This document shows, one piece after another, positions 312 through 33,186 of a stretch of 64,000 nt of DNA. Each line of letters opens with the position of its first letter. Within the stretch, counting starts at the first letter, position 1. The stretch is taken from NCBI RefSeq assembly GCF_058153355.1, contig NZ_CM177019.1; one strand, 5' to 3'. The notes under the pieces were generated by a model that was given only the letters and a program-made list of their open reading frames with translations, did not search any database and was not told the DNA's origin. The position numbers and the translations under genes were made by a program.

Positions 312-340
312 CAACAGTCCTTATTAATGAGAAATCCTTC

Positions 341-2047: not shown

Positions 2048-2056
2048 TTTCTGTCC

Positions 2057-3772: not shown

Positions 3773-5342
3773 TGTGTTTCTCCGAAACAGATGCGGTGCC
3801 TGAAGGCAAAAAATCATGCCAGGTGCTACGTTGTGCAGGCAGGTCGTGCGTCCCTGAGAGGACTATAGTGGAAGCGCCCGCCAGGATCCTGATGACAGGT
3901 TGTGGAATATGCGTTCCCATCGCCAGCATCATGACCAGCAGAATCACCATTGGCGAGGTGGTCAACCAGCCAAGTTCACCCCGGTTAACGGCCTGCGGCG
4001 GTTTCGCCATTAACACCCGCGCAGCCATCCGTACCAGGCCCGCCAGCACCAGCGTTAACAGCAATAACAGCAGGACGATAATCAACAGGTGATTACGAGC
4101 CAGTCCGGCGGTAACGGTCATAAATTCGCTAAGAAAAATGTTGAAGGGCGGCATCCCGGCCAGCGCCAGCGCACCGCCGCCAAACAGCACGGCGGTAAAT
4201 GGCATGATTTTGAGCATTCCGCAGACGACGTTGAGATCGCGCGTGCCGTACTTGAGCAGTACATTGCCGGAACCGCAGAACAGCAGCGTTTTTGCCAGAC
4301 TGTGGTTTAAGGTGTGCAGCAGCGCAGCAAAAATTCCCAGCGGCCCGCCAATGCCTAGCGCCACCGCGACCAGTCCCATGTTCTCCACGCTGGAGTACGC
4401 CAGCAGACGCTTAATGTCCCGCTGTACCAGAATGAAAAATGCCGCCACGGCAACCGACAACATGCCGAAGATGAGCAACAACCGGTTGGGGAAATCGCTG
4501 CCGATGGCCTGGCAAATAATGATGTAATAGCGAATCAGCACCAACAACGCGCAGTTCAGCAATACGGCGGAGAGCAGGGCGCTGACCGGACTCGGCGCTT
4601 CACTGTGAGCATCCGGCAGCCAGGCGTGCATGGGAAATAGCCCGGTTTTGGTGCCAAAGCCAATTAGCACAAACACAAAGGCCAACAGCATTAATGTTGG
4701 GTCAAGCAAGGACGATTGCTTAAGAACCTCGCTCCAGAATATCGCCATTTCTGCCTGCGGCATAACGCTGGCGGCGTTGGCGTATACCAGCACGGTACCG
4801 AACAGACCAAAAGCGACACCAACAGTACAAATAATGATGTACTTCCATGCAGCTTCCAGAGATGAACGCTGACCGTAAATGCCTACCAGAAACGCCGAGC
4901 TTAAGGTGGTGGCTTCGATTGCCGCCCACATCACAATCAGGTTATTGCTGGTAACAACCAGCAGCATGGTGAACAAAAACAGATGGAAGAAACCGTAGTA
5001 ATCGCACAGCGTAACGGGTGAAAGCTCGCCGTGAGCCACTTCATGACGCATGTAGCCAATCGAGTAAACACCGGTGAGAAAGCCAATCACACCAAGAATG
5101 GCGAGGAACAAACCGCCCAGACCATCAATATGAAGCCACAGTCCCGCAGCGAATATTTCTCCCGCATCAGCGGCAGTTTGGACCACCCACAGTGCCAGAA
5201 TCAGCAGCAGTGTGATCCCTAAGCTATGTAGTACTGTCACCGTGCGAGTCGCAGAGTGTTCCCGTTTCCGGCAGGCAAAACAGAGCAGCGAAAAAAGTAG
5301 CGGCGTGAGCAGGAGTAAAGCGAACATCACAGAATAACTCAT
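3762..5342 (-). CDS. hyfF: Hydrogenase-4 membrane subunit F (NuoL/M/N antiporter-like)
   Basis: 526-aa polytopic membrane ORF; operon position. Confidence 0.9.
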
Positions 5343-5346
5343 CTCA

Positions 5347-5997
5347 TTATCCCTTCAGCGCGGTCAAGTTGTTCACGTCCAGCGTGCCGTGGGTACGCCA
5401 TATTTTTCTTGCCAGTAACACCATCACAATGACGGCGAAGATGGCGTCGGTAGCGATACCAATTTCCACCAGTTCCGGTGCACGCCAGGCAAGAAGCGCC
5501 AGCACCAGATGGGAGCCGTTTTCCATCAGGCAGTAACCAAAAATTTGCCGCAGGATATTGCGCTGGCTGACAATGCACAGCAGGCCAAGTAGAAAATGAC
5601 CTAACGCCACCGCCAGCGCCGGTTTCAGCCCGGTAGCCATCGGTAGCTTCACGGGCTGAACGACAAATGCGCAAAGCAGGACAATTAATGCCGCGAGCAA
5701 TGCCATCATTGCCGGACCGAATAACGCTTTTTCCGGGAGGTTCTGGGGAATATTTCGTGCAGCGTAAATCATGATTAACGGTACCATCAGTACTTTGGTG
5801 ATAAAGGCGCTGGCGGACCAGATCAGCAGTTGCTCTGCGGCGAACAGGCACGAGAGGGTGGCGAAAATAGACACCAGCACCAGCGACTGGCAGGCGTAAA
5901 ATCCGCATGACAGGCGATAGCTTTTGACACTAATCACAAACAGCGATGTCAGCATCATCAGTCCCGCCAGATTATTTACGATCATAGAACCGGTCAT
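5347..5997 (-). CDS. hyfE: Hydrogenase-4 membrane subunit E
   Basis: 216-aa hydrophobic ORF; operon position. Confidence 0.85.
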
Positions 5998-6008
5998 TCA
6001 TCATCTCC

Positions 6009-7448
6009 TTACTGCAACCAGGTCGCGGCGAATACGCTGGAAATCAGCGACATCACAATCAGTACAATCAACACCAGGCGCATTGATCCTGGCAGCGGTG
6101 CGGCATCGGCGACGGCTTCGCTCGGTTTGCCAGGCACGATGCGACCAAACCAGCGAATAAACCAGGCGAAACTGGCGACCGATTCAATCATCAGCAGAAT
6201 CATGGCGGGCAGCAGGATCCAGTACTCCTCTGACAACGAAAAACCGGCAGCAAACAGTGGGAATTTACTGAAGAAGCCGTTGAACGGCGGCACGCCAGTA
6301 ATCGCCAGCGCGGCCACGCAGAAACCCACGCCAGGCAACGGCAGGGTGTGCAATACGCCACGCAGACGCGGCAACAAGCGCGTGCCGCAGCTGTAACTCA
6401 GCGCACCTGCTACAAGGAAAAACAGGCTTTTAGCGAACGCGTGGTTGACGATGTAGGCGATGCTGCCCTCCAGTGCCAGCCGCGAGCCGAAGATGGAGAG
6501 CGACAAGCCGAAGAACATCCAGCCAAGTTGAGTGATGGTCGACCAGGCCAGCAACCGCTTCATATCCTGCTGCGGCAAATACATCAGGAGGCCGTAAAGA
6601 ATGGTGACCAGTGCCATGACCATGCCAATGCCGCCAATCACATGCGGGATATTGCCGCCGTCGATAATGGCGCGGGCAAAAATGTAAACGCCCACTTTCA
6701 CCATCGATGCGGCGTGGAGATAGGCGCTGATCGGTGTTGGCGCTTCCATTGCATCCGGTAGCCACGCTTGCATCGGTAGCTGGGCCGATTTTCCCCACGC
6801 GGCAAACAGGATGCCGCCATAAACCAGATAACGTGCGTCGCCGTGTAACTCGCTCATCGCGCTAAGCGCAAACGTTCCGGTCTGCAAAAACAGCGTGGCG
6901 GCGGCAAGATACAACCCCAGCGAACCGATATGAGTGATAAGTAACGCTTTTAGTGCTGAACGTTGCGCTTTATCGCTCTGGTAATAACTGATCAACGCCC
7001 AGGAGCAGCCGCCCGTAATTTCAAAAAACAACAACTGACCGAGCAGCGTCGAGGAGAGTACCAGTCCCGCCATCGCGCCGATAAAAACCAGCAAAAATGC
7101 GTAATAACGATTCGTGCCGTTATGCGGGTGTTCGCGATTTTTATCCGTCAGATAACCCGTGGAGTAGATCGTGACCAGCAAACCGAGGAACACCACCACA
7201 AACAGAATCAGCGTACTCACGCGATCAATGACCAGGCCAAACAACGCCACATCCCCCACGTTGACCAACGTCAACGTGACGGCAACTTTATCGGCCTGAT
7301 AAAACGCGGAGATCAGCGACAACATGCACAGCGTGGTCAGCGCGGCGAACAAAATCCCCCATTCGGCGGCCCGACGTTGTGGCGAAAACGAAACGACCAG
7401 TGCGCCGATAAAAGGCAGCAATAACGTCGTCAGAGCAAGATTTTCCAT
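6009..7448 (-). CDS. hyfD: Hydrogenase-4 membrane subunit D (NuoL/M/N-like)
   Basis: 479-aa polytopic ORF; operon position. Confidence 0.9.
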   Translation of the reverse strand: MENLALTTLLLPFIGALVVSFSPQRRAAEWGILFAALTTLCMLSLISAFYQADKVAVTLTLVNVGDVALFGLVIDRVSTLILFVVVFLGLLVTIYSTGYLTDKNREHPHNGTNRYYAFLLVFIGAMAGLVLSSTLLGQLLFFEITGGCSWALISYYQSDKAQRSALKALLITHIGSLGLYLAAATLFLQTGTFALSAMSELHGDARYLVYGGILFAAWGKSAQLPMQAWLPDAMEAPTPISAYLHAASMVKVGVYIFARAIIDGGNIPHVIGGIGMVMALVTILYGLLMYLPQQDMKRLLAWSTITQLGWMFFGLSLSIFGSRLALEGSIAYIVNHAFAKSLFFLVAGALSYSCGTRLLPRLRGVLHTLPLPGVGFCVAALAITGVPPFNGFFSKFPLFAAGFSLSEEYWILLPAMILLMIESVASFAWFIRWFGRIVPGKPSEAVADAAPLPGSMRLVLIVLIVMSLISSVFAATWLQ

Positions 7449-7464
7449 ATTCCGTCAGTGCTCC

Positions 7465-8412
7465 TTACAGACCGGTTAACCAGAAGACCCAGGCAAGCGC
7501 AGCAAGGCTGAAGCCAAGCCAGGTCACATGGTGAATGAGTAAAAAACGCCCGCGTGCCAGCGTGTTTTCTGCGATAGAGGCCAGAACAAAAATCAGCAAA
7601 ACCTTGAGCAGCGTAACGACAAGTGAAGTCAGCAGGCAGGTGAGAGAAAGCTCTTGCGCGCGCCCAAAGGGCAGAAACAGGGCCACAAACAGTGCTGCCA
7701 TCACGACCTGTTTCAGCCCCAGCCCCAACTTCGCCAGCGCCAGCCCGGCACCGGAATATTCGGTCAGCGGGCCTTCCTGTAATTCCTGTTCTGCTTCAGC
7801 AACATCAAAGGGAATTTTTCCCATCTCAATGAAGCAGGCAAAACCACAGGCCAGTAACGCCAGTACGGTGGTTAGCGGCGAGTTCCAGCCCGTCGCCAGC
7901 GTCTTGCTGATCATCTCGATATGCGTGGAATCCGCTATCAGCGCCAATACCAGCAGTGAGAGAATGAGCATTGGTTCGACCAGAATGCCGAGCGTCAACT
8001 CGCGACTGGCACCGACTCCCGCAAACGGGCTTCCGGTATCCAGCCCGGAAAGAGCAAAGAAAAAACGAAACAGGGCAAGAAGATAGATAAGGGTGATCAG
8101 ATCGCCGCCGCCCGCAAAAGGGGAAACAGTAATAAATAGTGGTAGGGCCATCGCCAGCACCAGCATGCTGCTGATTAATACCCACGGCATCAGGCGGAAC
8201 ATCAGACCTGAAGATGTCGGCGCAACTTCCTGGCGTTTAAACAGTTTGTGGATATCGCGATAATCCTGCCAGATCCCCGGTCCGCGACGGGAGTGCATAC
8301 GCGCGCGTATCTGCCGGGAAATCCCTGTAAACAGTGGGGTTAGCGCCAGCAGAATCACGGCCTGTGCTAACGCAAAAATGATCAGATATCCGTCGCAAAG
8401 AGTTTGTCTCAT
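7465..8412 (-). CDS. hyfC: Hydrogenase-4 membrane subunit C (NuoH-like)
   Basis: ORF 7465-8433; start trimmed to MRQTLCDGYL (315 aa) by recall; start uncertain by a few codons. Confidence 0.8.
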   Translation of the reverse strand: MRQTLCDGYLIIFALAQAVILLALTPLFTGISRQIRARMHSRRGPGIWQDYRDIHKLFKRQEVAPTSSGLMFRLMPWVLISSMLVLAMALPLFITVSPFAGGGDLITLIYLLALFRFFFALSGLDTGSPFAGVGASRELTLGILVEPMLILSLLVLALIADSTHIEMISKTLATGWNSPLTTVLALLACGFACFIEMGKIPFDVAEAEQELQEGPLTEYSGAGLALAKLGLGLKQVVMAALFVALFLPFGRAQELSLTCLLTSLVVTLLKVLLIFVLASIAENTLARGRFLLIHHVTWLGFSLAALAWVFWLTGL

Positions 8413-8422
8413 GGTGATTTCC

Positions 8423-10441
8423 TTAGACGGCAATAGCGATTAGCAGCACAACCAGTGCGGCGACCACATACAGGCAATAGAGACGAAAGTCGCCGCTTTG
8501 CAGATGCTGTATTTCTTTGGCCAGCCGTTGGGTGGCGCTCACGATGGGGCGGAGCACCCGCTCATCCCAAAAGGGTTCTGTGCTCTGAGCCCTGGCGGTG
8601 ATGTGCGCGAGACCTTTGTTCAGCCTCAGCGTAGGGTCGAGCTGTTGTCGTAGACGAAATAGCGCAGAAAAGACCACACGCAGCGGCTGCATCACGCCAT
8701 TGCCTGACGGGGCCATCGCATTTTCCCAGCCGTAGCCGCATGCCCAGGCATCTCCTGTGCGACGAAACGCTGCGCGGCGCGAACGACACCACAGCCAGTA
8801 AAGGCCAGGCAGCAAAGGCATCGCCAGTAGTAACAGCAACAGTAATGAGGGAGTGACCTGTGTATGAAACGTGCCGGGGACAAGTGCCATTCCGCTGGCG
8901 ACAGTGACGGCAGGGGTATTGGTAAACGCATGGGCAATGTGCATTATTTTCGGTGCCAGCCAACTGGCACTAAGCGCAATTAATACGCAGAAAGCCGCGA
9001 GCAGTAACATGGCGACGATCATCGTATTTGGCACGTCCTGTGCCTCTTCAGCGTGTGTACTGCGCGGCGCACCACAGAAAGTAATGCCGTACATTTTGAC
9101 GAAGCACATTACTGCCAGCCCACCAGTGACTGCCAGCATCACCATAGCAATAGGACCCGCAAGTTGTAGCGCTACGGCTTCCACACGACTTAGTGAGAAC
9201 AGTGACTGCCAGGTGTACCATTCGCTGATAAAACCATTCAGCGGAGGAATGGCTGATATCGCGAGGCAACCAATCAGGCATGCTGCGGCTGTCCACGGCA
9301 TCCGTTTTGCCAGTGCCCCCATTTTTTCCATGTCGTGGGTATGCAAACGCGAAATAATCGCACCCGCGCCGAGAAATAGCAGCCCTTTGAACAGCGCATG
9401 GTTGAGCAGATGAAACAGTGCGCCGAGCAGTCCAACCACGGTGAGCAGCGGGTCGTGCAGTGACAGACCGACCATGGACACACCGACCGCCAGCAAAATA
9501 ATGCCGACGTTTTCGACGGTACTCCAGGCCAGCAGCCGTTTGATATCCTGTTCCGCCAGCGCATACAGCACGCCCAGGAGCGCGGAGATTGCGCCGATCG
9601 CCATCACCAGAATGCCCCACCACAGCGGCAAACCCGTTTGCGCCAGCAGATCCATCGCCACTTTCAGGATGCCGAAAATACCGATTTTGACCATTACGCC
9701 AGACATCAACGCCGAAGCGTGCGATGGTGCGGCAGGGTGAGCGCGCGGCAACCAGCTGTGCAACGGCATCATCCCGGCTTTCGCGCCAAAACCGAAGAAG
9801 GCCAGCAGGAACACCGCCGACGCCAGCCCCGGAGAAAGTGAAAGCGTGCGGAAACTGGCAAAATCGAGGTTGCCGCTTTCGCGCCACATCAGCAAGAAGG
9901 CAATCATAATCAGCACCGATCCGGCGTGGGCGATAAAAAAGTAGAGCATGCCAGCGTTGATTGACGTTTTATCCTGCCTGGCAATGACCAGAAACCAGGA
10001 AGACAGCGACATCATTTCAAACAGCACGATGAACCAAAAAGCGTTGTCCATCACCAGCAGGGCAACCATCGAGGCGATGAAAAGATTCATAAAGAAGCCC
10101 ATCGCCGCCGCGCCTTTGCCCTCGTATTCGCGCATATAAGTCAATGAATAGAGCGAACAAACCACCACCAGCAAGGAGATAACCAGCACCATAAATGCCG
10201 AGAGGCTATCCATTCGCAGGGTTAAATCGGCAAAGTCAAAAGGCGTGGCAAAACGGGCGACTAAAGTTACGCCTGCATGTAATTGCGTAATTCCGCTGAT
10301 GATGCCAATCGCGCCGCCCACCAGCGATGTGATGCCGGAAAGCTTAATAGCCAGTCTGTCCAGACCGAGTAAAAACAGCGAAGCCAGACTGGCAAACAGA
10401 TAGAGGATCAGCGACCAGGTTAATAATTGCAGGGCATCCAT
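8423..10441 (-). CDS. hyfB: Hydrogenase-4 membrane subunit B (NuoL-like)
   Basis: 672-aa polytopic ORF; operon position. Confidence 0.9.
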   Translation of the reverse strand: MDALQLLTWSLILYLFASLASLFLLGLDRLAIKLSGITSLVGGAIGIISGITQLHAGVTLVARFATPFDFADLTLRMDSLSAFMVLVISLLVVVCSLYSLTYMREYEGKGAAAMGFFMNLFIASMVALLVMDNAFWFIVLFEMMSLSSWFLVIARQDKTSINAGMLYFFIAHAGSVLIMIAFLLMWRESGNLDFASFRTLSLSPGLASAVFLLAFFGFGAKAGMMPLHSWLPRAHPAAPSHASALMSGVMVKIGIFGILKVAMDLLAQTGLPLWWGILVMAIGAISALLGVLYALAEQDIKRLLAWSTVENVGIILLAVGVSMVGLSLHDPLLTVVGLLGALFHLLNHALFKGLLFLGAGAIISRLHTHDMEKMGALAKRMPWTAAACLIGCLAISAIPPLNGFISEWYTWQSLFSLSRVEAVALQLAGPIAMVMLAVTGGLAVMCFVKMYGITFCGAPRSTHAEEAQDVPNTMIVAMLLLAAFCVLIALSASWLAPKIMHIAHAFTNTPAVTVASGMALVPGTFHTQVTPSLLLLLLLAMPLLPGLYWLWCRSRRAAFRRTGDAWACGYGWENAMAPSGNGVMQPLRVVFSALFRLRQQLDPTLRLNKGLAHITARAQSTEPFWDERVLRPIVSATQRLAKEIQHLQSGDFRLYCLYVVAALVVLLIAIAV

Positions 10442-11058
10442 TAGCGTTGCTCCTGAGTGAGGGAAAGGGGATCCTCCCCGCCATTGGCAAACCAGCTTGC
10501 GGCAAGGCGCTGTTTTTCTTTCATCTGACGTTGCAGGCTATCGTCGGTGATCAGCCGTAACGCATGATTCGGGCAAGCGCGAACGCAGGCCGGACCTTCT
10601 GGCAAGAAATCACACAGGTCGCATTTCACCGCGACGGTCTGGACACCCGGTTCCCAGCGCAGCAAAGCATGTTGGGTCGGCGCGTTTTCTTCGCCGTCTT
10701 TGAGTGAGCCGTCAGCCTGAAAAACATATTGCGCAGGGGCATTCACCGGACGGCTTCCTGAAGCGCTGATTGCGCCAAATGGGCAGACCACGGCGCAAAG
10801 CTTGCAGCCAATACAGAGGCTTTCGTTGAGTTGGATCGCATCATCTCTCTGGGAGATGGCATTGACCGGGCAGACCTGCAGGCAAGGGGCTTCCTCACAG
10901 TGATGACACACGACAGGGGCAGTGAGTGTTGACGTCTTCGCCAGGGCCAGGCGCGGGTGTTGCTGTAAACCTTGCGTTTTATGCACGTCCGAACAGGCAG
11001 CGAGACAGGTATTACATCCTGTACACCACAGTGGTTCGGCCACCACAAAGCGGTTCAT
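10441..11058 (-). CDS. hyfA: Hydrogenase-4 4Fe-4S ferredoxin subunit A
   Basis: ORF with multiple CxxCxxC clusters; start placed at MNRFVVAEPLWCTGCNTC (205 aa). Confidence 0.85.
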   Translation of the reverse strand: MNRFVVAEPLWCTGCNTCLAACSDVHKTQGLQQHPRLALAKTSTLTAPVVCHHCEEAPCLQVCPVNAISQRDDAIQLNESLCIGCKLCAVVCPFGAISASGSRPVNAPAQYVFQADGSLKDGEENAPTQHALLRWEPGVQTVAVKCDLCDFLPEGPACVRACPNHALRLITDDSLQRQMKEKQRLAASWFANGGEDPLSLTQEQR

Positions 11059-11099
11059 GTCGGCTCCTTGAAAATGATATGAAACATTGCATTTCATAT

Positions 11100-11117
11100 T
11101 GCATAAAGGATGCCAGT
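11100..11117 (-). promoter_or_regulatory. Candidate sigma54 (-24/-12) promoter of the hyf operon
   Basis: Minus strand reads ACTGGCATCCTTTATGCA: GG and GC elements 10 nt apart, about 40 bp upstream of hyfA start; hyf is known to be sigma54/HyfR dependent. Confidence 0.55.
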
Positions 11118-11310
11118 CTGATTAATTTAATATATTCAATAAGTTATGTGTTAACTGGATTCTGAGCGGTACAAAAATGATGGTCATTAACGTTCAGCAA
11201 TAAATGGATTCGACACCCGTGTCGCAGGGGAAAGCGAGAATGTGATCTTGATCACGAGAAGTGAGATGTGCTGACCGCAAGCGCAGCCAGCACGGAATGG
11301 AGTAAAGTAA

Positions 11311-11781
11311 TCAGGCGTGTTCTTTCAGCCAGTTCAGCACAACGTCGTGGTGATTGCTGGTTTTGAAATCGTCAAAGACATGTTCGATTTTGCCATCAGC
11401 GTCAATCAGGAAGCTGATGCGATGAATACCATCGTAGGTTTTGCCCATGAAGGACTTTTCACCCCAGACGCCGAATTGTTCGCACACCTGGTGGTCCTCA
11501 TCAGACAGGAGCGTAAAGTTAAGCAGCTCTTTTTCCGCAAAACGGGAGAGTTTTTCGGGTTTATCGGTGCTGATACCCAGCACATCAACGCCCGCTTTTT
11601 TCAATTCATCCATGTTATCGCGTAAGCTGCAGGCCTGTACGGTACAGCCGGGAGTCATGGCTTTTGGGTAAAAATAAACCAGAACACGCTGTCCCTGGAA
11701 GTCGGTCAAATTAACTTGTTCTCCGTCTTGATCCGGCAAGCTAAATTTCGGTGCGATATCACCGGCTTTCAGTGGATTCAT
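11311..11781 (-). CDS. bcp: Thiol peroxidase / peroxiredoxin Bcp
   Basis: 156-aa ORF MNPLKAGDIAPKFSLPDQDGE... with peroxiredoxin TPGCT active-site motif. Confidence 0.92.
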   Translation of the reverse strand: MNPLKAGDIAPKFSLPDQDGEQVNLTDFQGQRVLVYFYPKAMTPGCTVQACSLRDNMDELKKAGVDVLGISTDKPEKLSRFAEKELLNFTLLSDEDHQVCEQFGVWGEKSFMGKTYDGIHRISFLIDADGKIEHVFDDFKTSNHHDVVLNWLKEHA

Positions 11782-12353
11782 TACTTAACTCCATCCTGTT
11801 CATCATGTGGGGAATAATTGACGACGTTTATACTGCCTTGTGCATTGAGTTCTGTACATAGGGCTTTAAACGCTTGCTCAATATTTGCTGCATCCGCAGA
11901 GGCGGGACTGTGGGCGGTTATCTGAATATGCAACTGTACAGCCCGTTCATTTTCAGCAGGTTGCGTGCGCGACACCAGCTCCGCAATGTTCATATGGTGC
12001 GCGTCGAAAAGTGCCGTGAAGCGTTCAATTAAATGCGGGGAGTCTGCCACATCGACCTGAACCCAGACAGATGCTGGCATTGGCGGACGCGGACGCGCCG
12101 TCGTGCGCTTCATCACGATTAAAAGATCCAGTTCGGCACCTTTCAACGGTAACGTTGATTCAATCAGAGTGATGGCATTCCATGAACCGGAAAGCAGCAT
12201 GATAAACGTGAACTCTTCTCCCAGCATTGCCAGGCGACTGTCTTCGATATTACAGCCGCAACTACTGACATGACGGGTGATGGTGTTCACAATTCCAGGG
12301 CGATCGGCACCCAACGCAGTGATCACCAGATAATGTTGCGATGACAGTGTCAA
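11781..12353 (-). CDS. gcvR: Glycine cleavage system transcriptional repressor GcvR
   Basis: TTG start at 12351-12353 with AAGGA Shine-Dalgarno; product ...TLSSQHYLVITALGADRPG (190 aa, ACT domains); stop overlaps bcp start. Confidence 0.85.
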   Translation of the reverse strand: MTLSSQHYLVITALGADRPGIVNTITRHVSSCGCNIEDSRLAMLGEEFTFIMLLSGSWNAITLIESTLPLKGAELDLLIVMKRTTARPRPPMPASVWVQVDVADSPHLIERFTALFDAHHMNIAELVSRTQPAENERAVQLHIQITAHSPASADAANIEQAFKALCTELNAQGSINVVNYSPHDEQDGVK

Positions 12354-12498
12354 ACTGGTTATTCCTTTAAGGGGTGAGTTGTTCTTAAGGAAAGCATAAA
12401 AAAAACATGCATACAACAATCAGAACGGTTCTGTCTGCTTGCTTTTAATGCCTTACCAAACGTACCATTGAGACACTTGTTTGCACAGAGGATGGCCC

Positions 12499-13377
12499 AT
12501 GTTCACGGGAAGTATTGTCGCGATTGTTACTCCGATGGATGAAAAAGGTAATGTCTGTCGGGCTAGCTTGAAAAAACTGATTGATTATCATGTCGCCAGC
12601 GGTACTTCGGCGATCGTTTCTGTTGGCACCACTGGCGAGTCCGCTACCTTAAATCATGACGAACATGCTGATGTGGTGATGATGACGCTGGAGCTGGCTG
12701 ACGGGCGCATTCCGGTAATTGCAGGGACCGGCGCTAATGCCACTACGGAAGCCATTAGCCTGACGCAGCGTTTCAATGACAGTGGTATCGTCGGCTGTCT
12801 GACGGTAACCCCTTACTATAATCGTCCGTCGCAAGAAGGTTTGTATCAGCATTTCAAAGCCATCGCTGAACATACTGACCTGCCGCAAATTCTGTATAAT
12901 GTGCCGTCCCGTACTGGTTGCGATCTGCTCCCGGAAACGGTGGGCCGTCTGGCGAAAGTAAAAAATATTATCGGAATCAAAGAGGCTACAGGGAACTTAA
13001 CGCGTGTAAACCAGATCAAAGAGCTGGTTTCAGATGATTTTGTTCTGCTGAGCGGCGATGATGCGAGCGCGCTGGACTTCATGCAATTAGGCGGTCATGG
13101 GGTTATTTCCGTTACGGCTAACGTCGCAGCGCGTGATATGGCCCAGATGTGCAAACTGGCGGCAGAAGGGCATTTTGCCGAGGCACGCGTTATTAATCAG
13201 CGTCTGATGCCATTACACAACAAACTATTTGTCGAACCCAATCCAATCCCGGTGAAATGGGCATGTAAGGAATTGGGTCTTGTGGCGACCGATACGCTGC
13301 GCCTGCCAATGACTCCAATCACCGACAGTGGTCGTGAGACGGTCAGAGCGGCGCTTAAGCATGCCGGTTTGCTGTAA
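12499..13377 (+). CDS. dapA: 4-hydroxy-tetrahydrodipicolinate synthase
   Basis: [19 protein letters not shown]..., 292 aa; recalled DapA. Confidence 0.93.
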
Positions 13378-13393
13378 AGTTTAGGGAGATTTG

Positions 13394-14428
13394 ATGGCTT
13401 ACTCTGTTCAAAAGTCGCGCCTGGCAAAGGTTGCGGGTGTTTCGCTTGTTTTATTACTCGCAGCCTGTAGTTCTGACTCACGCTATAAGCGCCAGGTCAG
13501 TGGTGATGAATCCTACCTGGAAGCAGCACCGCTTGCGGAGCTTCATGCCCCGGCTGGAATGATTTTGCCGGTGACCTCCGGTGATTACGCAATCCCGGTG
13601 ACCAACGGTAGTGGTGCTGTCGGTAAGGCGCTGGACATTCGTCCGCCAGCCCAGCCGCTGGCACTGGTTTCTGGCGCGCGTACCCAGTTCACGGGCGATA
13701 CCGCTTCATTGCTGGTGGAAAATGGTCGTGGCAATACTCTGTGGCCGCAGGTAGTTAGCGTGCTGCAGGCGAAAAACTACACCATCACCCAACGTGATGA
13801 TGCGGGTCAGACGCTGACCACCGATTGGGTACAATGGAACCGTCTGGACGAAGACGAGCAGTATCGTGGTCGTTATCAAATCTCTGTTAAACCGCAAGGT
13901 TATCAGCAGGCGGTTACGGTTAAACTGCTGAACCTGGAACAGGCGGGCAAACCGGTTGCAGACGCGGCTTCCATGCAGCGTTACAGCACGGAGATGATGA
14001 ACGTTATTTCCGCCGGTCTGGATAAATCTGCCACTGACGCCGCGAACGCTGCGCAAAATCGTGCCTCCACCACTATGGACGTACAAAGTGCAGCTGATGA
14101 CACCGGTTTACCGATGCTGGTCGTACGCGGGCCGTTCAATGTGGTTTGGCAACGTCTGCCAGCGGCGCTGGAAAAAGTGGGCATGAAAGTGACCGACAGC
14201 ACCCGTTCGCAGGGCAACATGGCCGTAACTTACAAGCCGCTATCTGACAGCGACTGGCAGGAACTGGGCGCGAGCGATCCAGGCCTGGCATCCGGTGACT
14301 ATAAACTGCAGGTTGGCGATTTAGATAACCGCAGCAGCCTACAGTTCATCGATCCGAAAGGTCATACTCTGACTCAGAGTCAGAACGACGCGCTGGTAGC
14401 TGTCTTCCAGGCTGCGTTTAGCAAGTAA
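13394..14428 (+). CDS. bamC: Outer-membrane assembly lipoprotein BamC (NlpB)
   Basis: [27 protein letters not shown] lipoprotein signal with lipobox; 14 bp downstream of dapA. Confidence 0.9.
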
Positions 14429-14435
14429 AAATACA

Positions 14436-14467
14436 GGGCTGGAGTCATCCGGCCCTTTTTTCTGATA
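14436..14467 (+). terminator. Rho-independent terminator after dapA-bamC
   Basis: GGGCTGGA-gtca-TCCGGCCC stem (one G-U pair) followed by TTTTTTTC. Confidence 0.7.
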
Positions 14468-14471
14468 TGAT

Positions 14472-14487
14472 ACGCAAACGTGTGCGT
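14472..14487 (+). promoter_or_regulatory. PurR operator (PUR box) upstream of purC
   Basis: ACGCAAACGTGTGCGT matches the PurR box consensus; located in the purC upstream region. Confidence 0.7.
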
Positions 14488-14639
14488 CGGCAGAAAAATG
14501 CGATTTTAGCGGTAATTCGCACGAAATTTGTTTGTCGGACGCAGGTCGGATAAGGCGTTCACGCCGCATTCGACAAACATCTGGCACATCAGACAGCAAA
14601 AGATTTTAAAACGTTAATTCACACCCAGGAGTGATAAAG

Positions 14640-15353
14640 ATGCAAAAGCAAGCTGAGTTGTATCGTGGTAAAGCGAAAACCGTATACAGCACGGAAAACC
14701 CGGACCTGTTGGTGCTCGAATTCCGCAATGATACGTCAGCAGGGGATGGCGCGCGCATTGAGCAGTTTGATCGCAAAGGTATGGTGAACAACAAGTTCAA
14801 CTACTTCATTATGAGCAAACTGGCTGAAGCGGGTATCCCGACTCAAATGGAGCGTCTGCTCTCCGATACCGAGTGTCTGGTGAAAAAGCTGGATATGGTG
14901 CCGGTTGAGTGTGTCGTGCGTAACCGTGCTGCTGGCTCTCTGGTGAAACGTCTTGGAATCGAAGAAGGTATTGAGCTGAACCCGCCGCTGTTCGATCTGT
15001 TCCTGAAAAACGACGCCATGCACGATCCGATGGTCAACGAATCTTACTGCGAAACCTTTGGCTGGGTAAGTAAAGAGAACCTGGCGCGTATGAAAGAGCT
15101 GACCTACAAAGCGAACGACGTGCTGAAAAAACTGTTCGATGATGCTGGTCTGATTCTGGTCGACTTCAAGCTGGAGTTTGGCCTGTACAAAGGCGAAGTG
15201 GTTCTGGGCGATGAGTTCTCCCCGGACGGCAGCCGCCTGTGGGACAAAGAAACGCTGGAGAAAATGGATAAAGACCGTTTCCGCCAGAGCCTCGGTGGCC
15301 TGATCGAAGCCTATGAAGCCGTTGCCCGCCGCCTGGGTGTACAGCTGGACTGA
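14640..15353 (+). CDS. purC: Phosphoribosylaminoimidazole-succinocarboxamide synthase (SAICAR synthetase)
   Basis: [28 protein letters not shown]..., 237 aa; recalled PurC. Confidence 0.93.
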
Positions 15354-15369
15354 TTTTTCTATTCATCAT

Positions 15370-15394
15370 CTTGCCGTGCTGCTGGCACGGCAAG
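15370..15394 (+). terminator. Perfect 10-bp hairpin downstream of purC (possible terminator)
   Basis: CTTGCCGTGC-tgctg-GCACGGCAAG; no clear T-tract follows, so function uncertain. Confidence 0.4.
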
Positions 15395-15520
15395 ACAACC
15401 GCTCTCATAAGATGTGCATTGAACGCTCATTCCTCCGCCATTTCATCCCGCTTTCCTGTGGTAATCTTCCTCTGAACCACCTACGATCATTTCTATAATG
15501 AATATATTGTTGAGGTATCT

Positions 15521-16384
15521 ATGCGTTGGCAAGGGCGACGTGAAAGTGACAATGTTGAAGACAGGCGCAATAGCTCCGGTGGTCCGTCAATGGGCGGTCC
15601 CGGTTTCCGTCTGCCAAGCGGTAAAGGCGGGCTGATTTTACTGATAGTCGTGCTGGTTGCAGGCTACTATGGCGTTGATTTAACCGGATTGATGACCGGA
15701 CAGCCGGTTTCCCAACAACAATCAACGCGGTCAATTAGCCCTAATGAAGACGAAGCCGCAAAATTCACCTCGGTGATTCTGGCAACCACCGAAGACACCT
15801 GGGGACAGCAGTTCGAGAAGATGGGTAAGACCTATCAGCAACCGAAGCTGGTCATGTACCGTGGAATGACGCGCACCGGCTGCGGGGCGGGCCAGTCCAT
15901 TATGGGACCGTTCTATTGCCCGGCGGATGGCACGGTTTATATCGATCTCTCCTTCTATGATGACATGAAAGACAAACTTGGCGCGGATGGCGATTTTGCC
16001 CAGGGGTACGTTATCGCCCATGAAGTCGGTCATCATGTGCAGAAACTGTTAGGCATCGAGCCGAAAGTTCGTCAACTGCAACAAAACGCGACGCAGGCGG
16101 AAGTAAACCGCTTATCTGTGCGTATGGAACTCCAGGCCGACTGTTTTGCCGGTGTCTGGGGGCATAGCATGCAGCAGCAAGGCGTTCTGGAAACCGGCGA
16201 TCTGGAAGAAGCGCTGAACGCGGCGCAGGCCATCGGCGATGACCGTTTACAGCAGCAAAGTCAGGGGCGAGTCGTACCAGACAGTTTCACTCATGGCACT
16301 TCTCAGCAACGCTACAGCTGGTTTAAACGTGGTTTCGACAGCGGCGATCCGGCACAATGCAATACTTTTGGTAAAAGCATTTAA
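15521..16384 (+). CDS. ypfJ: Putative neutral zinc metallopeptidase YpfJ
   Basis: 287-aa ORF with N-terminal TM segment and HEVGHH zinc motif. Confidence 0.88.
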
Positions 16385-16398
16385 CTTTCGGGGCAGGG

Positions 16399-18414
16399 AT
16401 GGCTGAACTGACTGCGCTTCACCCATTAACAGCGCAAATGAAACGTGAAGGGATCCGCCGCTTGCTGGTGTTGAGCGGGGAAGAACGTTGGTGCTTTAAC
16501 CTTGCGCTTAAGTTGAGTGATGCCTTACCTGGCGACTGGTTGTGGGTTTCGCCGCAGCCAGTCGCTGAAAACTACTGTACTCCCTCGACGCTACAAACTT
16601 TACTTGGACGCGAGTTCCGGCATGCGGTATTCGACGCCCGCCAGGGCTTTGATGCCGCTGCCTTTGCGGCACTTAGCGGAACGTTGAAAGCGGGAAGCTG
16701 GCTGGTGTTGTTACTCCCTGTATGGGAAGAGTGGGAGAACCAACCTGATGCCGACTCGCTGCGCTGGAGTGATTGCCCTGACCCTATTGCGACGCCGCAT
16801 TTTATCCGGCACCTCAAACGCGTACTTACGGCGGATCACGACGCTATCCTCTGGCGGCAAAACCAGCCGTTCACGTTGACGCATTTTATTCCCCGTACTG
16901 ACTGGCAACCCGCGACTGGCGCACCACAACCAGAACAACAGCAACTCTTACAGCAGCTACTCACCATGCCGCCGGGCGTGTCAGCGGTAACTGCTGCGCG
17001 TGGGCGCGGTAAGTCGGCGCTGGCAGGGCAACTCATTTCTCGTATTGCGGGTAGTGCGATTGTCACCGCGCCTGCAAAAGCGGCAACGGATGTACTGGCA
17101 CAATTTGCGGGCGAAAAGTTTCGCTTTATTGCGCCGGATGCGTTGTTAGCCAGCAATGAGCAAGCCGACTGGCTGGTGGTTGACGAAGCCGCGGCCATAC
17201 CTGCGCCGTTGTTGCATCAACTGGTATCGCGTTTTCCTCGAACGTTGTTAACCACTACGGTGCAGGGCTACGAAGGTACCGGACGTGGTTTTTTGCTGAA
17301 ATTTTGTGCGCGTTTCCCGCATTTACACCGTTTCGAATTGCAACAGCCGATCCGCTGGGCGCAGGGATGCCCGCTGGAAAAAGTGGTCAGCGAGGCACTG
17401 GTTTTTGACGATGAAAACTTCACTCACGAACCACAAGGTGACATCGTCATTTCCGCTTTTGAACAGACCTTATGGCGAAGCGATCCGGATACACCGTTAA
17501 AGGTATATCAGCTATTGTCTGGCGCGCACTACCGGACCTCGCCGCTGGATTTACGCCGCATGATGGATGTACCTGGGCAACATTTTTTCCAGGCGGCTTG
17601 TGAAAACGAGATCGCCGGGGCGCTGTGGCTGGTCGAGGAGGGCGGATTATCTCAAGAACTCAGCCAGGCGGTATGGGCAGGTTTTCGTCGCCCGCGGGGT
17701 AATCTGGTAGCCCAGTCGCTGGCGGCGCACGGCAGCAATCCACTGGCAGCGACATTGCGCGGACGGCGGGTCAGCAGGATAGCAGTTCATCCAGCTCGTC
17801 AGCGTGAAGGCATTGGGCAACAGCTTATTGCCCGTGCTTTAAACTATACGCATGACCTCGACTATCTTTCGGTGAGTTTTGGCTACACCGCGGAGTTATG
17901 GCGTTTCTGGCAACGCTGCGGTTTTGTGCTGGTGCGAATGGGTAATCATCGTGAAGCCAGCAGCGGTTGCTATACGGCGATGGCACTGTTACCGATGAGT
18001 GATGAGGGTAAACAGCTGGCTGAACGTGAGCATTACCGTTTACGTCGCGATGTGCATGCTCTCACGCAGTGGAATGGCGAAACGCTCCCCGTCGATCCAC
18101 GAAATGATGCCGTCCTTTCTGAGGACGACTGGCTTGAACTGGCCGGTTTTGCTTTCGCTCATCGTCCGCTATTAACGTCGTTAGGTTGCTTAACGCGTCT
18201 GCTACAAACCAGTGAACTGGCATTACCGGCGCTGCGTGGTCGTTTACAGAAAAACGCCAGTGACGCGCAGTTATGTACCACACTTAAACTTTCAGGCCGC
18301 AAGATGTTACTGGCCCGTCAGCGAGAAGAGGCCGCGCAGGCGCTGTTCGCACTTGATAATGTTCGCACTGAGCGTCTGCGCGATCGCATAACGCAATGGC
18401 AATTTTTTCACTGA
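16399..18414 (+). CDS. tmcA: tRNA(Met) cytidine acetyltransferase TmcA
   Basis: 671-aa ORF with helicase-like ATPase region and C-terminal GNAT domain. Confidence 0.88.
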   Translation: MAELTALHPLTAQMKREGIRRLLVLSGEERWCFNLALKLSDALPGDWLWVSPQPVAENYCTPSTLQTLLGREFRHAVFDARQGFDAAAFAALSGTLKAGSWLVLLLPVWEEWENQPDADSLRWSDCPDPIATPHFIRHLKRVLTADHDAILWRQNQPFTLTHFIPRTDWQPATGAPQPEQQQLLQQLLTMPPGVSAVTAARGRGKSALAGQLISRIAGSAIVTAPAKAATDVLAQFAGEKFRFIAPDALLASNEQADWLVVDEAAAIPAPLLHQLVSRFPRTLLTTTVQGYEGTGRGFLLKFCARFPHLHRFELQQPIRWAQGCPLEKVVSEALVFDDENFTHEPQGDIVISAFEQTLWRSDPDTPLKVYQLLSGAHYRTSPLDLRRMMDVPGQHFFQAACENEIAGALWLVEEGGLSQELSQAVWAGFRRPRGNLVAQSLAAHGSNPLAATLRGRRVSRIAVHPARQREGIGQQLIARALNYTHDLDYLSVSFGYTAELWRFWQRCGFVLVRMGNHREASSGCYTAMALLPMSDEGKQLAEREHYRLRRDVHALTQWNGETLPVDPRNDAVLSEDDWLELAGFAFAHRPLLTSLGCLTRLLQTSELALPALRGRLQKNASDAQLCTTLKLSGRKMLLARQREEAAQALFALDNVRTERLRDRITQWQFFH

Positions 18415-18487
18415 CTCCTTCAATTTTCTCCCATGGTCATTGTGAGTCAGCGGCGTAAAATTAATGACATCAGTTAAGGAGTTCGCC

Positions 18488-19189
18488 ATGAAACATGACC
18501 ATTTTGTTGTTCAAAGCCCGGATAAACCTGCACAACAGTTGTTACTGCTTTTCCACGGTGTCGGGGATAACCCGGTAGCGATGGGTGAGATCGGCAGCTG
18601 GTTTGCGCCGCTGTTTCCTGATGCACTGGTGGTGAGCGTCGGTGGCGCGGAGCCGAGCGGTAATCCGGCGGGGCGTCAGTGGTTTTCGGTGCAGGGTATT
18701 ACGGAAGATAATCGCTAGGCGCGTGTGGATGCCATCATGCCGACGTTTATTGAGACGGTGCGCTACTGGCAGAAACAGAGCGGAGTAGGGGCAAACGCCA
18801 CGGCGCTAATCGGTTTCTCACAAGGCGCGATTATGGCGCTGGAGAGCATTAAAGCCGAACCGGGTCTTGCTTCGCGCGTCATTGCCTTTAACGGACGTTA
18901 TGCCAGCTTGCCGGAAACCGCGTCTACAGCCACGACAATTCACTTGATTCATGGCGGTGAAGATCCGGTTATCGATCTGGCGCATGCGGTTGCGGCGCAG
19001 GAAGCGTTAATCAGTGCAGGTGGTGATGTGACGCTGGATATTGTGGAGGATTTAGGCCATGCAATCGACAATCGCAGTATGCAATTTGCCCTGGATCACT
19101 TGCGTTATACCATTCCGAAACATTATTTCGACGAAGCGCTAAGTGGTGGCAAACCTGGCGATGATGATGTAATTGAAATGATGCAATAA
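18488..19189 (+). pseudogene. ypfH: Esterase YpfH interrupted by an in-frame amber codon (TAG at 18716-18718)
   Basis: Two same-frame ORFs (18464-18718 and 18725-19189) separated only by TAG; combined read-through gives ...GITEDNR*ARVDAIMPT..., about 233 codons, the size recalled for YpfH. Confidence 0.75.
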
Positions 19190-19256
19190 TAGCCTGGTAG
19201 ATACTGTTATGGCCTGCAAGTTTTTTTCTACCCCGGTTTCCCAGATTGCAGGCATG

Positions 19257-20560
<1,304 letters not shown>

Positions 20561-20563
20561 AGC

Positions 20564-20764
20564 TTACTTCTTCGGTTGATCCTTTTTCGGCCAGTCATCG
20601 TCATCGTCCCACTTATCGTTGAAATCACGATGCGGGGGAAGCTCCGGTTTGTTGGCGAGAAATTTCTTATGGTCGACGCGCTTGAGATCTTTAATCACGT
20701 TCAGCAGGACGCCTACCAAAAAGACAATCACCAGAATCCACCAATATTTAGCCAGCCAGTCCAT
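20564..20764 (-). CDS. ypfN: Small inner-membrane protein YpfN (UPF0370)
   Basis: [35 protein letters not shown]...; 66 aa from the internal ATG. Confidence 0.8.
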
Positions 20765-20791
20765 GCTTATTTCCTCTTGCAGAACCACTCA

Positions 20792-21919
20792 TCAGGCGAC
20801 GAGCTGTTCCATGATACGTTGATACATACGGGCAAGTAGCTGCAGGTCGGCAGCGTTCACACATTCATTAATTTTATGAATAGTGGCATTGACCGGCCCG
20901 AGTTCCACCACCTGCGCCCCCATGCGGGCAATAAAGCGCCCGTCAGACGTTCCGCCTGTGGTCAGTAGCTGCGGTTTAATTTCATTATAGTGCTCAACCG
21001 CGTTAACGACCGCATCCACCAGTTTGCCGCGCGCGGTCAAAAATGGCTGCCCGGAAAGCCACCAATCCACCGTATAACGCAGTTGATGTTTTTCAAGCAG
21101 GGCAAGCACCTGCGCTTTGATCATCTCATCCGTCAGTTCGGTGCTAAAGCGGAAGTTAAACTGCACAAACAGTTCACCCGGAATAACGTTGTTACTGCCC
21201 GTTCCCGCCTGAATATTGGCAATCTGCATACTGGTCGCCGGGAAGAATTCATTACCCTGATCCCACTCAATAGCCACTAATTCATTAAGGAAAGGTGCTG
21301 CGCGATGTACCGGGTTGTCAGCCAGATGCGGGTAGGCTACATGCCCCTGCACGCCATGAATGGTGAGGTTGCAGGTTAACGATCCGCGACGACCATTTTT
21401 CACCACGTCACCAACCACTTCGATGCTCGATGGTTCGCCGACCAGGCAGTAATCGAGACGCTCATTACGCGCCATTAACGCTTCGACGACTTTTACCGTA
21501 CCGTTGTGGGCACTGGCTTCTTCATCAGAAGTGATCAGAAATGCCAGTCGGCCTGTATGGTTGGGATGTTGCGCGACAAAACGTTCTGCTGCTACCACCA
21601 TCGCCGCCAGTGAGCCTTTCATATCTGCCGCACCACGCCCGAACAACATGCCGTCACGAATGGTTGGTTCAAACGGCGGATTAATCCAACGGTCGGCGTC
21701 GCCAGGCGGTACCACGTCGGTATGTCCGGCAAAGGCTAACGTTTCGCCCTGCCCACGCCACGCCCAAAAGTTTTGCGTATCGGCAAAGTCCATGCGTTCA
21801 ACGGTAAAACCGATCGCCTGCAGACGTTCGATCATGATTGCCTGACATCCCGCATCATCAGGGCTTAAGGATGGGCGGCGAATAAGCTGCTGGGTCAGCT
21901 CAATAACCGGGCACGACAT
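20792..21919 (-). CDS. dapE: Succinyl-diaminopimelate desuccinylase
   Basis: 375-aa M20-family peptidase [29 protein letters not shown]... Confidence 0.93.
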
Positions 21920-21922
21920 AGA

Positions 21923-22297
<375 letters not shown>

Positions 22298-22659
22298 TTA
22301 TGAGAATAAATACTCATTTAAGGGTGAAAACATTTTGCCTGCAAATGATTATCAAGAAATATAACATTATCGAAGTATTCAAATTAACAACTATTAAATA
22401 ATATTAAACATTTTTAACGTAAACATTAAGAATATTCATCTTGTTATCTGTCTGTATTTTAACCAGAATTAAATAAGTATTAGATGCCGTATGAATATCT
22501 CGAAATGTTGCTGTGTATCACATACAAATCATCACCGCAGGACCATAGTATTTACATAAGGTTTGTCCCCCGGAGGTAGTCATCGCAGCAATCGAGTAAA
22601 TTAGCTTCACCACGGTATATTGTTTCCGTAGAATACCCATAATTATAAGAGAGGTTGTT

Positions 22660-22719
22660 ATGATTGAACGTGAACTGGGGAACTGGAAAGACTTTATCGA
22701 AGTTATGCTTCGTAAGTAA
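22660..22719 (+). CDS. ypfM: 19-aa micro-protein YpfM
   Basis: ATG-initiated MIERELGNWKDFIEVMLRK with GAGAGG Shine-Dalgarno; recalled as the annotated K-12 small protein. Confidence 0.6.
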   Translation: MIERELGNWKDFIEVMLRK

Positions 22720-22780
22720 TTCCTGAGACAAAGTACAAACAGAAAGTACCTGCTGAACAGGTTCTTTATCGGAAAGTTGA

Positions 22781-22812
22781 AAAAGGCGACACATTGGTAT
22801 GTCGCCTTTTTA
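22781..22812. terminator. Bidirectional rho-independent terminator between ypfM and acrD
   Basis: AAAA-GGCGACA-cattggta-TGTCGCC-TTTTT: A-tract and T-tract flank the hairpin. Confidence 0.75.
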
Positions 22813-22817
22813 ATTGC

Positions 22818-25800
22818 TTATTCCGGGCGTGGCTTCAGCGGAAAGCGGCGGCGCACCAGCACAAAGAACAGCGGCACGAAGTAAATAGCCAGAATCGTGG
22901 CCGAAATCATCCCGCCCATTACGCCAGTACCCACCGCATGCTGGCCACCGGAACCGGCCCCTGTGCTGGTTGCCATTGGCAATACGTCGAAGATAAAGGC
23001 CAGAGAGGTCATCAGAATCGGACGTAAACGCTGACGGCAGGCGTGGAGCGTCGCTTCAAACAGGTCGTGACCTTTTTGGTTCATCTCGTTAGCAAATTCG
23101 ACGATCAGGATGGCGTTTTTCGCCGATAAACCAATCACCGTTAACAGGCCTACCTGAAAGTAAACGTCGTTTTCCAGCCCGCGAAGCCAGGTTGCCAGCA
23201 GCGCGCCGATAACGCCCAGCGGCACGACCAGCATTACCGAGAACGGCACCGACCAGCTTTCATACAGCGCCGCCAGACACAGGAATACCACCAGCAATGA
23301 AATGGCATACAGCGCCGGAGCCTGCGCGCCGGAGAGTCGCTCCTGATACGACATCGCCGTCCATTCCAGACCAAAGCCGCTTGGCAACTGCTTCACTAAC
23401 GATTCCATAATATCCATCGCCGTACCGGTGCTGACCCCCGGCGCGGCTTCCCCGACAATCTCTACCGCTGAATAACCGTTATAGCGTTCCAGACGCGGCG
23501 AGCCTGTTTCCCAGCGTGAGGTCGCGAAAGCAGAGAAGGGGACCATGCCACCATCTTTATTTCGTACATACCAGAGATTGATGTCATCTGGCAGCATGCG
23601 ATATGGCGCAGCGGCCTGCACATAGACTTTCTTCACGCGACCGCGATCCATAAAGTCATTCACATAGCTCGAACCCCACGCGGTTTGCAGCGTGTCGTTA
23701 ATATCGTCGATAGCAACGCCCAGCGCCTGAGCTTTACGCTGATCGATATCAATCTGCAACTGCGGACTGTCGTCGAGGCCGTTATGGCGTACACGGGTTA
23801 ACTCCGGATTTTCCGCCGCCAGAGCCAGCAACTGGTTACGTGCTGCCATCAGCGCATCGTGACCCGCACCAGCGTGGTCCTGCAACTCCATATCAAAACC
23901 CGCAGAACTGCCAAGGCCACTAATTGCTGGCGGGCTGCTGGCGATAACGCGAGCTTCTTTAATCTTATTAAATTCCTTCGTTGCACGTTCGATAATGGCA
24001 AACGAGGTGCCGGTCTTACTGTCGCGTTCGCTCCAGTCTTTCAGGCGGATAAACATTCGCGCCACGTTTTGCCCGTTACCCCCAGGGCCAGAACCAACGG
24101 TGGCAAACACCGACATGATGTTGTCTTTTTCATGGGTGAAGTAATATTTCTCGATTTGCTCAACGACTTTCAGGGTCTGTTGTTGGGTTGAACCGCTGGG
24201 CAACTGTACCGAGGTAGTAAACATGCCACGGTCTTCCAGTGGCAAGAACGACGTCGGCAAACGCAGGAACAGGAACACCATGCCGCCAAGCAGCAGGACA
24301 TAAATCACAATCCAGCGCAGGCTACGGTGGAGAATTTTTGCTACCCCTTTTTCGTAGCGTTCGGCGTTACGATTAAACATCTGGTTAAACCAGGCAAAAA
24401 AGCCTTTTTGTCCGTGATGCTCACCTTTTTTCAGCGGCTTAAGTAGCGTGGCACACAGAGCCGGAGTGAGGATCATTGCTACCAGTACTGACAGCACCAT
24501 CGCCGCAACAATGGTAATAGAAAACTGGCGATAGATAGCTCCGGTGGTGCCACCGAAGAAGGCCATTGGCACAAATACCGCCGACAGCACCATCGCAATC
24601 CCGACCAGTGCCCCCTGGATCTGCCCCATCGATTTACGTGTGGCTTCGCGAGGAGTGAGTCCTTCCTCACTCATAATACGTTCGACGTTTTCCACCACCA
24701 CGATGGCGTCATCCACCAGCAGACCGATCGCCAGCACCATCGCGAACATGGTTAAGGTGTTGACGCTGTAACCGAAGGCGTAAAGTACGGAGAAGGTTCC
24801 CATCAACACCACCGGCACGGCGATAGTTGGTATCAGCGTGGCACGGAAGTTTTGCAAGAACAGATACATAACGAGGAAAACCAGGGCGATAGCTTCCAGC
24901 AGCGTTTTCACCACGTCTTCAATGGAGGCTTTAACAAATGAGGTGGTTTCATATGCCACCTTGTATTCCAGTCCGTGTGGGAAGTACTGCGCCAGTTCGT
25001 CGAGACGATTGAGTACCAGCTCCGCTGTTGCCATTTCGTTCGCGCCGGAGGCCAGTTTTACCCCCAGCCCGGAGGCTGGCTTACCGTTGAAGCGGCTGAG
25101 ATAATCGTATTTCTCTGCCCCCATTTCCACGGTGGCGACATCGCCCAGCCTTACTTCTGAGCCGTCCTGATTCACCCGTAAGGTGATATCGCGGAACTGT
25201 TCTGGTGTTTGCAGCAGTGACTGGGCGTTAATGGTGGCGTTGAGCGCCTGCTTATCGACGGAAGGCGTACCACCAAGTTGCCCAACCGCAATCTGCGCGT
25301 TCTGTGACTCAATGGCATCAGTGACATCTTTAGCCGTCATCTGAAAACTGTTGAGTTTCGCCGGGTCCAGCCAGATACGCATTGAATATTGCGAACCATA
25401 GGCATCGATATCCCCGACGCCATTCACGCGGCTTAATGGGTCCTGAATATTACTGGCAACGTAATCGGCAATATCCTGCTTATCCATCGAACCATCGGTA
25501 GAGACGAAGGCAATGGTAAGAATGTTGGTATCGCCGGTTTTACGCACCGTCACGCCCTGATTTTGCACCGCCTGCGGCAACTTTCGCATGGCTGATTGCA
25601 GCTGGTTTTGTACTTGCTGCACTGCTTCGTCCGGATCGGTGCCCGCTTTAAAACTTAAGGTGACAGATGCCTGACCGGTGCCACTGCTTTGAGACGACAT
25701 ATACATGAGATTATCGAGGCCGGTCATATTTTGCTCGATAACCTGGGTCACGGTGTTTTCCAGCGTCTGAGCCGATGCGCCGGGGTAGTTAGCGGTTACT

Positions 25801-31852: not shown

Positions 31853-31908
31853 ATACTGTTATGGCCTGCAAGTTTTTTTCTACCCCGGTTTCCCAGATTG
31901 CAGGCATG

Positions 31909-33186
<1,278 letters not shown>

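Follow-up and report, generated by a model that had tools for sequence, protein, structure and literature searches.

The esterase gene ypfH of a natural Escherichia coli isolate as a pseudogene made, most probably, at a Dcm methylation hotspot

The amber hotspots of lacI, linked with Coulondre and Miller (1978), are said to be the classic case of deamination at Dcm sites. The two dominant spontaneous amber hotspots of that gene are CCAGG sites, at which such mutations are ~10-fold over-represented (PMC12606429), and the T:G mismatch in CTWGG/CCWGG is normally corrected by Vsr very-short-patch repair (PMC2715241). Like these hotspots, codon 77 of ypfH in the DNA described here has gone from CCAGG to CTAGG, with the inner C replaced by T and a glutamine codon by an amber one; unlike them, the ypfH allele lies in the chromosome of a natural isolate and not in a selected lacI collection. 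YpfH itself is an esterase/thioesterase, the physiological role of which is unclear (PMC11367265). A nonsense change at a Dcm site and an IS621 insertion, the two phenomena met at this locus, are both textbook ones, and another genome already carries this very allele with a pseudogene annotation.

Within the window, the whole 64,000-nt stretch of DNA that was analysed, the ypfH frame runs from an ATG at 18488 to a TAA at 19187-19189 over 233 codons, 76 sense codons preceding an internal TAG. The features of the locus are as follows.

18488-19189, + strand: full frame of ypfH, 702 nt, interrupted by TAG
18488-18715, + strand: ypfH codons 1-76, the sole part translated ahead of the stop, with the HGVG oxyanion-hole motif at residues 23-26
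18716-18718, + strand: amber codon TAG, ypfH codon 77; ancestral CAG (Gln)
18715-18719, + strand: CTAGG, the mutated Dcm site, CCAGG in all relatives; the inner C, which Dcm methylates, is the base that changed
18719-19189, + strand: ypfH codons 78-233 and TAA, undamaged and in frame
18725 (GTG) and 18737 (ATG), + strand: candidate restart codons within the segment of codons 78-233
18818-18820, + strand: codon of Ser111 (GFSQG)
18962-18964, + strand: codon of Asp159
19058-19060, + strand: codon of His191
19190-19200, + strand: 11-bp spacer TAGCCTGGTAG from the ypfH stop to the insertion sequence (IS)
19201-20480, − strand: IS621 copy in the REP target ATCAGGCCTAC; 1280 bp with the core dinucleotide counted once
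19306-20286, − strand: IS621 recombinase gene, 326 aa, with DEDD_Tnp_IS110 and Transposase_20 domains
20480-20556, − strand: REP element beyond the IS as seen from ypfH, naRNA4 (RF02564, Rfam)

The read-through translation, which begins MKHDHFVVQ, matched the Pfam family Abhydrolase_2 (PF02230) over residues 3-209 with 201.7 bits against a cut-off of 23, identifying the product as the YpfH esterase, with b2473 as its E. coli orthologue, and the gene order, tmcA-ypfH followed by the convergent ypfN-dapE, is that of K-12. Around codon 77 the + strand reads GAT AAT CGC TAG GCG CGT GTG, where K-12 MG1655 has GAT AAT CGC CAG GCG CGT GTG (DNRQARV), in agreement with the preliminary description, which gave CAG (Gln) in an NRQARV context for K-12. 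That description had also stated that a lone in-frame TAG splits ypfH and that reading through it restores a contiguous esterase of the expected length. The split and the contiguous esterase were borne out; the length departs slightly from that of K-12 YpfH, with 233 codons here versus 232 residues, because the TAA stop of K-12 reads CAA on the window haplotype.

The catalytic residues were assigned by motif alignment to the solved relatives 5dwd and 4fhz and by family knowledge, with GFSQG occupying residues 109-113. With the stop at codon 77, the locus has no uninterrupted frame that carries the Ser-Asp-His triad on one polypeptide. The 76-residue product is reduced to N-terminal strands plus the HGVG motif and lacks Ser111 of GFSQG, Asp159 and His191, all of which lie beyond codon 77, so that the truncation does remove the catalytic region, as had been claimed from the first inspection. 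As translation ends ahead of all three residues of this alpha/beta-hydrolase, ypfH is to be read as a pseudogene. A restart at the GTG or ATG listed above would yield a fragment in which the fold lacks its N-terminal part. A polar effect of the stop on genes downstream is not expected, as no other gene follows ypfH before the convergent ypfN-dapE pair.

Three origins had been considered for the TAG in the preliminary description, namely a true nonsense allele, a suppressor-dependent gene and a sequencing error. The last, in which the genome truly carries CAG and the T stems from sequencing or assembly, for example from nanopore-only miscalling of Dcm-methylated CCWGG, is very improbable. Nanopore consensus errors concentrate at Dcm motifs, the codon 77 site is such a motif, and support for the T was seen at the level of assembled contigs rather than of a read pile-up, all of which would suit an error. 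However, a Logan contig, a de Bruijn-graph build from the public reads of SRR28786219, which may or may not share the read set of the window assembly, carries the same T: across 10,488 bp, TAG and IS junction among them, it shows 0 mismatches to window positions 8737-19224, and it breaks off 24 bp into the IS, where a repeat would be expected to end a contig. Other strains, too, show the identical allele, in assemblies made with SPAdes and in short-read assemblies from around 2015. When the annotation of R32_14_1F was mapped onto the window, 58 of the 58 other genes were intact and free of frameshifts, leaving ypfH alone with an internal stop, and just 2 of 142 comparable Dcm positions differed from those of relatives, which argues against motif-wide miscalling. 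With this evidence against an error and for a true allele, we consider it very likely that a real nonsense allele makes ypfH a pseudogene. The sole other length difference among the 59 genes concerns pbp4b (60176-61480, − strand), which exceeds its R32_14_1F counterpart by 3 nt, in frame.

Comparison with related genomes, a check that had been proposed along with these readings, placed the change within the lineage of the window. The closest complete genomes, 2017-02-2CC and R32_14_1F, have CAG at codon 77, and the in-frame stop is not conserved among relatives. Beyond codon 77, the ypfH of 2017-02-2CC differs from that of the window at just two of 702 nt, both synonymous, and the read-through protein is, Q77 excepted, identical to the YpfH of the closest genomes (WP_000679813.1 type). 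Decay is absent from the remainder of ypfH, and the allele is therefore young. A 41-mer query, for which a megablast match is possible only with the central T, revealed T at codon 77 in one of 5,426 complete E. coli genomes, that of E200139 (NZ_CM128604.1) from Mali, in which PGAP labels ypfH a pseudogene on account of an 'internal stop'; the other 5,425 have C at that base. None of the 5,426 perfectly matched a 71-mer with the TAG site at its centre. Identity of at least 99% to the window haplotype was found in only 14-18 of these genomes (for ypfH alone and for window positions 1-19200), and the 150-aa C-terminal ORF, in exactly the form it has on this haplotype, occurred in two contigs only of the public collection; the one retrieved, the Logan contig of SRR28786219, is identical to the window. 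On the window haplotype, Q77amber is recent and private to the strain. In the annotation of this strain, ypfH should appear as an internal-stop pseudogene, with no blame for the disruption falling on the flanking IS621. The haplotype of window positions 15488-23469 is unusual, with ~94% identity to most E. coli on tmcA-dapE (16399-21919, IS removed); this and its rarity would suit either a deep lineage or the import of a segment.

Could YpfH still be made at full length, by a natural amber-suppressor tRNA encoded elsewhere in the genome or by efficient read-through? Amber suppressors are reported in some environmental coliforms, and the 156 codons downstream of the TAG are wholly undamaged, a state equally expected of a very recent mutation. 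By contrast, the nearest relatives all have CAG, so the TAG is no conserved feature; no tRNA gene lies within the 64-kb window; strong amber suppression would extend to hundreds of other genes, those that normally end in TAG; and Q77amber behaves like the other sporadic ypfH nonsense alleles described below. Suppression is very improbable, the least likely of the explanations weighed here, and we infer that the strain has no suppressor. An Rfam scan of 18300-20900 returned REP-derived naRNA4 only and no recoding or regulatory RNA.

Given that the nonsense allele is real, deamination of 5-methylcytosine is its probable cause. The Dcm context of the codon had gone unmentioned in the preliminary description, as had the identity of the IS as IS621 in its canonical REP target. 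K-12, Nissle, R32_14_1F, 2017-02-2CC, 14EC033 and M8 all have CCAGG at the site where the window has CTAGG, that is, a CCWGG ancestor with a C-to-T change at the inner C, and of the three Dcm sites in ypfH only that at codon 77 gives a stop upon deamination. In the proposed route, Dcm would methylate the inner C of CCAGG, deamination of the 5-methylcytosine would give thymine directly, and the resulting T:G mismatch, if missed by Vsr repair, would convert CCAGG to CTAGG, the single C-to-T transition by which the Gln77 codon CAG became amber TAG. Both dcm and vsr lie outside the window; the dcm-vsr pair is found in 5,358 of the 5,426 complete E. coli genomes, which makes its presence in the window's strain likely. 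We infer that Dcm is active in the strain and that deamination rather than a replication error was the cause.

A true nonsense allele in which methylation played no part, made by a replication error or by deamination of an unmethylated cytosine at CAG in a dispensable gene, differs on the cause only, the pseudogene conclusion being common to both, and it is a possible but distinctly less probable origin. The derived changes of the window lineage are biased from GC to AT (93 of 149), as such an origin would allow, and their enrichment at Dcm positions is not significant: window-specific substitutions, polarised against three references, fell on 2 of 142 Dcm positions versus 91 of 19,362 other G/C positions, a 3-fold difference (Fisher p=0.15) that is underpowered, with small numbers, and that we left out as support. 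All tested transition-type nonsense alleles of ypfH, moreover, occur in public data, in several backgrounds each. Against this stand the mutated base, which is exactly the methylated C of CCAGG, the near-universality of dcm in E. coli, and the rank of Q77amber among the nonsense alleles compared below.

Over 11262-52211, comparison with three reference genomes gave 149 window-specific derived substitutions in 36.3 kb, including 93 GC-to-AT transitions. On the + strand of this region, C-to-T changes outnumber G-to-A changes two-fold (62 vs 31), a surplus that could be due to strand-biased mutation or to imported recombinant tracts. A second lineage-specific C-to-T change at the inner C of a Dcm site, again CCAGG to CTAGG, is located at 27628, in the third position of narQ codon 56, and is synonymous.

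The same truncation recurs in public data. The exact 76-aa fragment was found in 240 blocks of a 15-billion-protein collection, to which the K-12-like N37 variant adds 71, and 76-aa fragments are on record as 'esterase YpfH' (e.g. CTR70007.1 and GHO15101.1). All 15 of the Q77amber loci that were retrieved read CGC-TAG-GCG, and they represent at least 10 distinct haplotypes with 0-183 differences per 2.8 kb. Several have near-identical wild-type twins: locus L006 differs from wild-type Nissle 1917 by the codon-77 C-to-T change as the sole difference in 2,802 bp, locus L009 from wild-type 14EC033 by that change alone in 2.8 kb, and locus L003 from wild-type M8 by that change and one tmcA SNP in 2.8 kb. 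Distinct haplotypes and such twins together argue that Q77amber arose independently many times. E200139 and the public 76-aa fragments carry a mutation identical to that of the window, CGC-TAG-GCG at codon 77; unlike the window, they have no IS621 insertion downstream of ypfH, and as the haplotypes differ (180 differences per 2.8 kb from the window), they are regarded as independent events.

As controls, the products of other transition-type nonsense mutations on the same haplotype were looked up, and all exist. The counts below are blocks of the collection in total, followed by blocks with a longest contig of at least 20 kb.

Q64stop: 55 in total, 2 long-contig
W65stop: 72 in total, 0 long-contig
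Q69stop: 74 in total, 3 long-contig
Q77amber: 240 in total, 41 long-contig
W94stop: 176 in total, 34 long-contig
Q95stop: 63 in total, 5 long-contig
Q97stop: 110 in total, 7 long-contig

Q77amber was the most frequent of the seven alleles tested and thus the commonest nonsense allele of ypfH among those looked up in public data. W94stop, which does not lie at a Dcm site, was nearly as common, mostly through one clonal TGA lineage; with it set aside, the five controls, none dominated by one clone, ranged over 55-110 blocks in total and 0-7 long-contig blocks, so that Q77amber exceeds them ~3-fold overall and at least 6-fold in long contigs, a cruder and smaller excess than the ~10-fold of lacI. 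This excess speaks against a methylation-free cause; as blocks are not independent events, owing to clonality, it is consistent with a Dcm hotspot and is no proof of one. Retrieved loci of the control alleles have real internal stops, in several backgrounds each.

Two simpler uses of these data were given up. Recurrence across backgrounds had been considered as proof of a hotspot and was downgraded to a modest excess, as Q64, W65, Q69, W94, Q95 and Q97 recur too; in very large collections almost any tolerated nonsense allele recurs, and recurrence alone is no sign of a hotspot or of selection. Raw tallies of contigs with a truncated protein suffer from genes cut off where a contig ends, and contig-length classes and inspection of loci were used instead. 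Q77amber in ypfH would be a neat instance, in nature, of the Dcm amber hotspot known from textbooks, and is of little import beyond annotation.

Other ypfH truncations came to light during inspection. An abundant 88-aa 'YpfH' fragment (348 contigs) comes mostly from N-filled scaffold gaps inside ypfH (L020-L022) and is not a real truncation; alone among the 88-aa loci inspected, L023 has a genuine GAA-to-TAA change at codon 89. In L025 (Logan SRR15731681 contig 333), Q77amber lies on a K-12-like haplotype and the 3′ end of ypfH is replaced by phage-type integrase sequence, by all appearances an island or prophage inserted in the gene.

Nonsense alleles at every tested position in nature indicate that loss of ypfH is tolerated. 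Selection for knock-outs would go further and make the loss adaptive, with Q77amber recurring for that reason; the repeated finding of nonsense alleles at every position tested would fit, as would the degradation of ypfH in Shigella dysenteriae. All such alleles are rare, however, with Q77amber in one of 5,426 complete genomes, nearly every genome has an intact ypfH with a conserved protein, and the pattern is one that neutral or slightly deleterious tip mutations would leave in so large a sample, all of which makes adaptive loss highly unlikely. We likewise give little credence to Q77amber as a recurrent switch-off allele maintained at low frequency by a balance of Dcm-driven mutation and selection, or as one rescued by a suppressor with conditional expression of YpfH.

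IS621 is an element of the IS110 family with a bridge-RNA-guided recombinase. Its natural target is ATCAGGCCTAC, with a CT core, in REP elements (PMC11208160). The copy beside ypfH resembles published IS621 in having the same recombinase and the same REP target, and nothing notable sets it apart: the recombinase carries the domains PF01548 and PF02371 and aligns with PDB 8wt6, 'IS621 transposase', over residues 1-326 (E=4.5e-218), and the insertion lies at ATCAGGCCTAC, with its CT core, in a REP element. The element starts at 19201, 11 bp beyond the ypfH stop as first described, and the last four bases of the spacer, GTAG, are part of the IS621 target, with one copy of the CT/AG core. Read along the element's strand, the empty site of R32_14_1F is CTTATCAGGCCTACCAGG, and both ends of the IS are flanked by the AG/CT core. 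The REP is split by the IS, and its naRNA4 portion (RF02564, nucleoid-associated REP-derived RNA), which adjoins the right end of IS621, is a full-length match with 89 bits.

A link between this IS and the stop codon was considered and rejected. Eight complete genomes have an IS621-family element at the same site, their ypfH being listed as 'esterase' and T at codon 77 occurring in 0 of 8, and the other Q77amber loci have no IS at the site; IS621 and the nonsense mutation are therefore unrelated. The IS beside ypfH represents a separate event, an RNA-guided insertion into the element's usual REP target.

The window contains a second IS621 copy at 31853-33132, 100% identical to the first over 1280 bp, with the recombinases of both copies on the minus strand, and both copies are missing from the nearest complete genomes. 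The second copy lies in a REP between ypfG and tkt, in the target ATCCGGCCTAC, which has a mismatch at position 4; IS621 tolerates a target mismatch at this position, as in the example ATCGGGCCTAC (PMC11208160).
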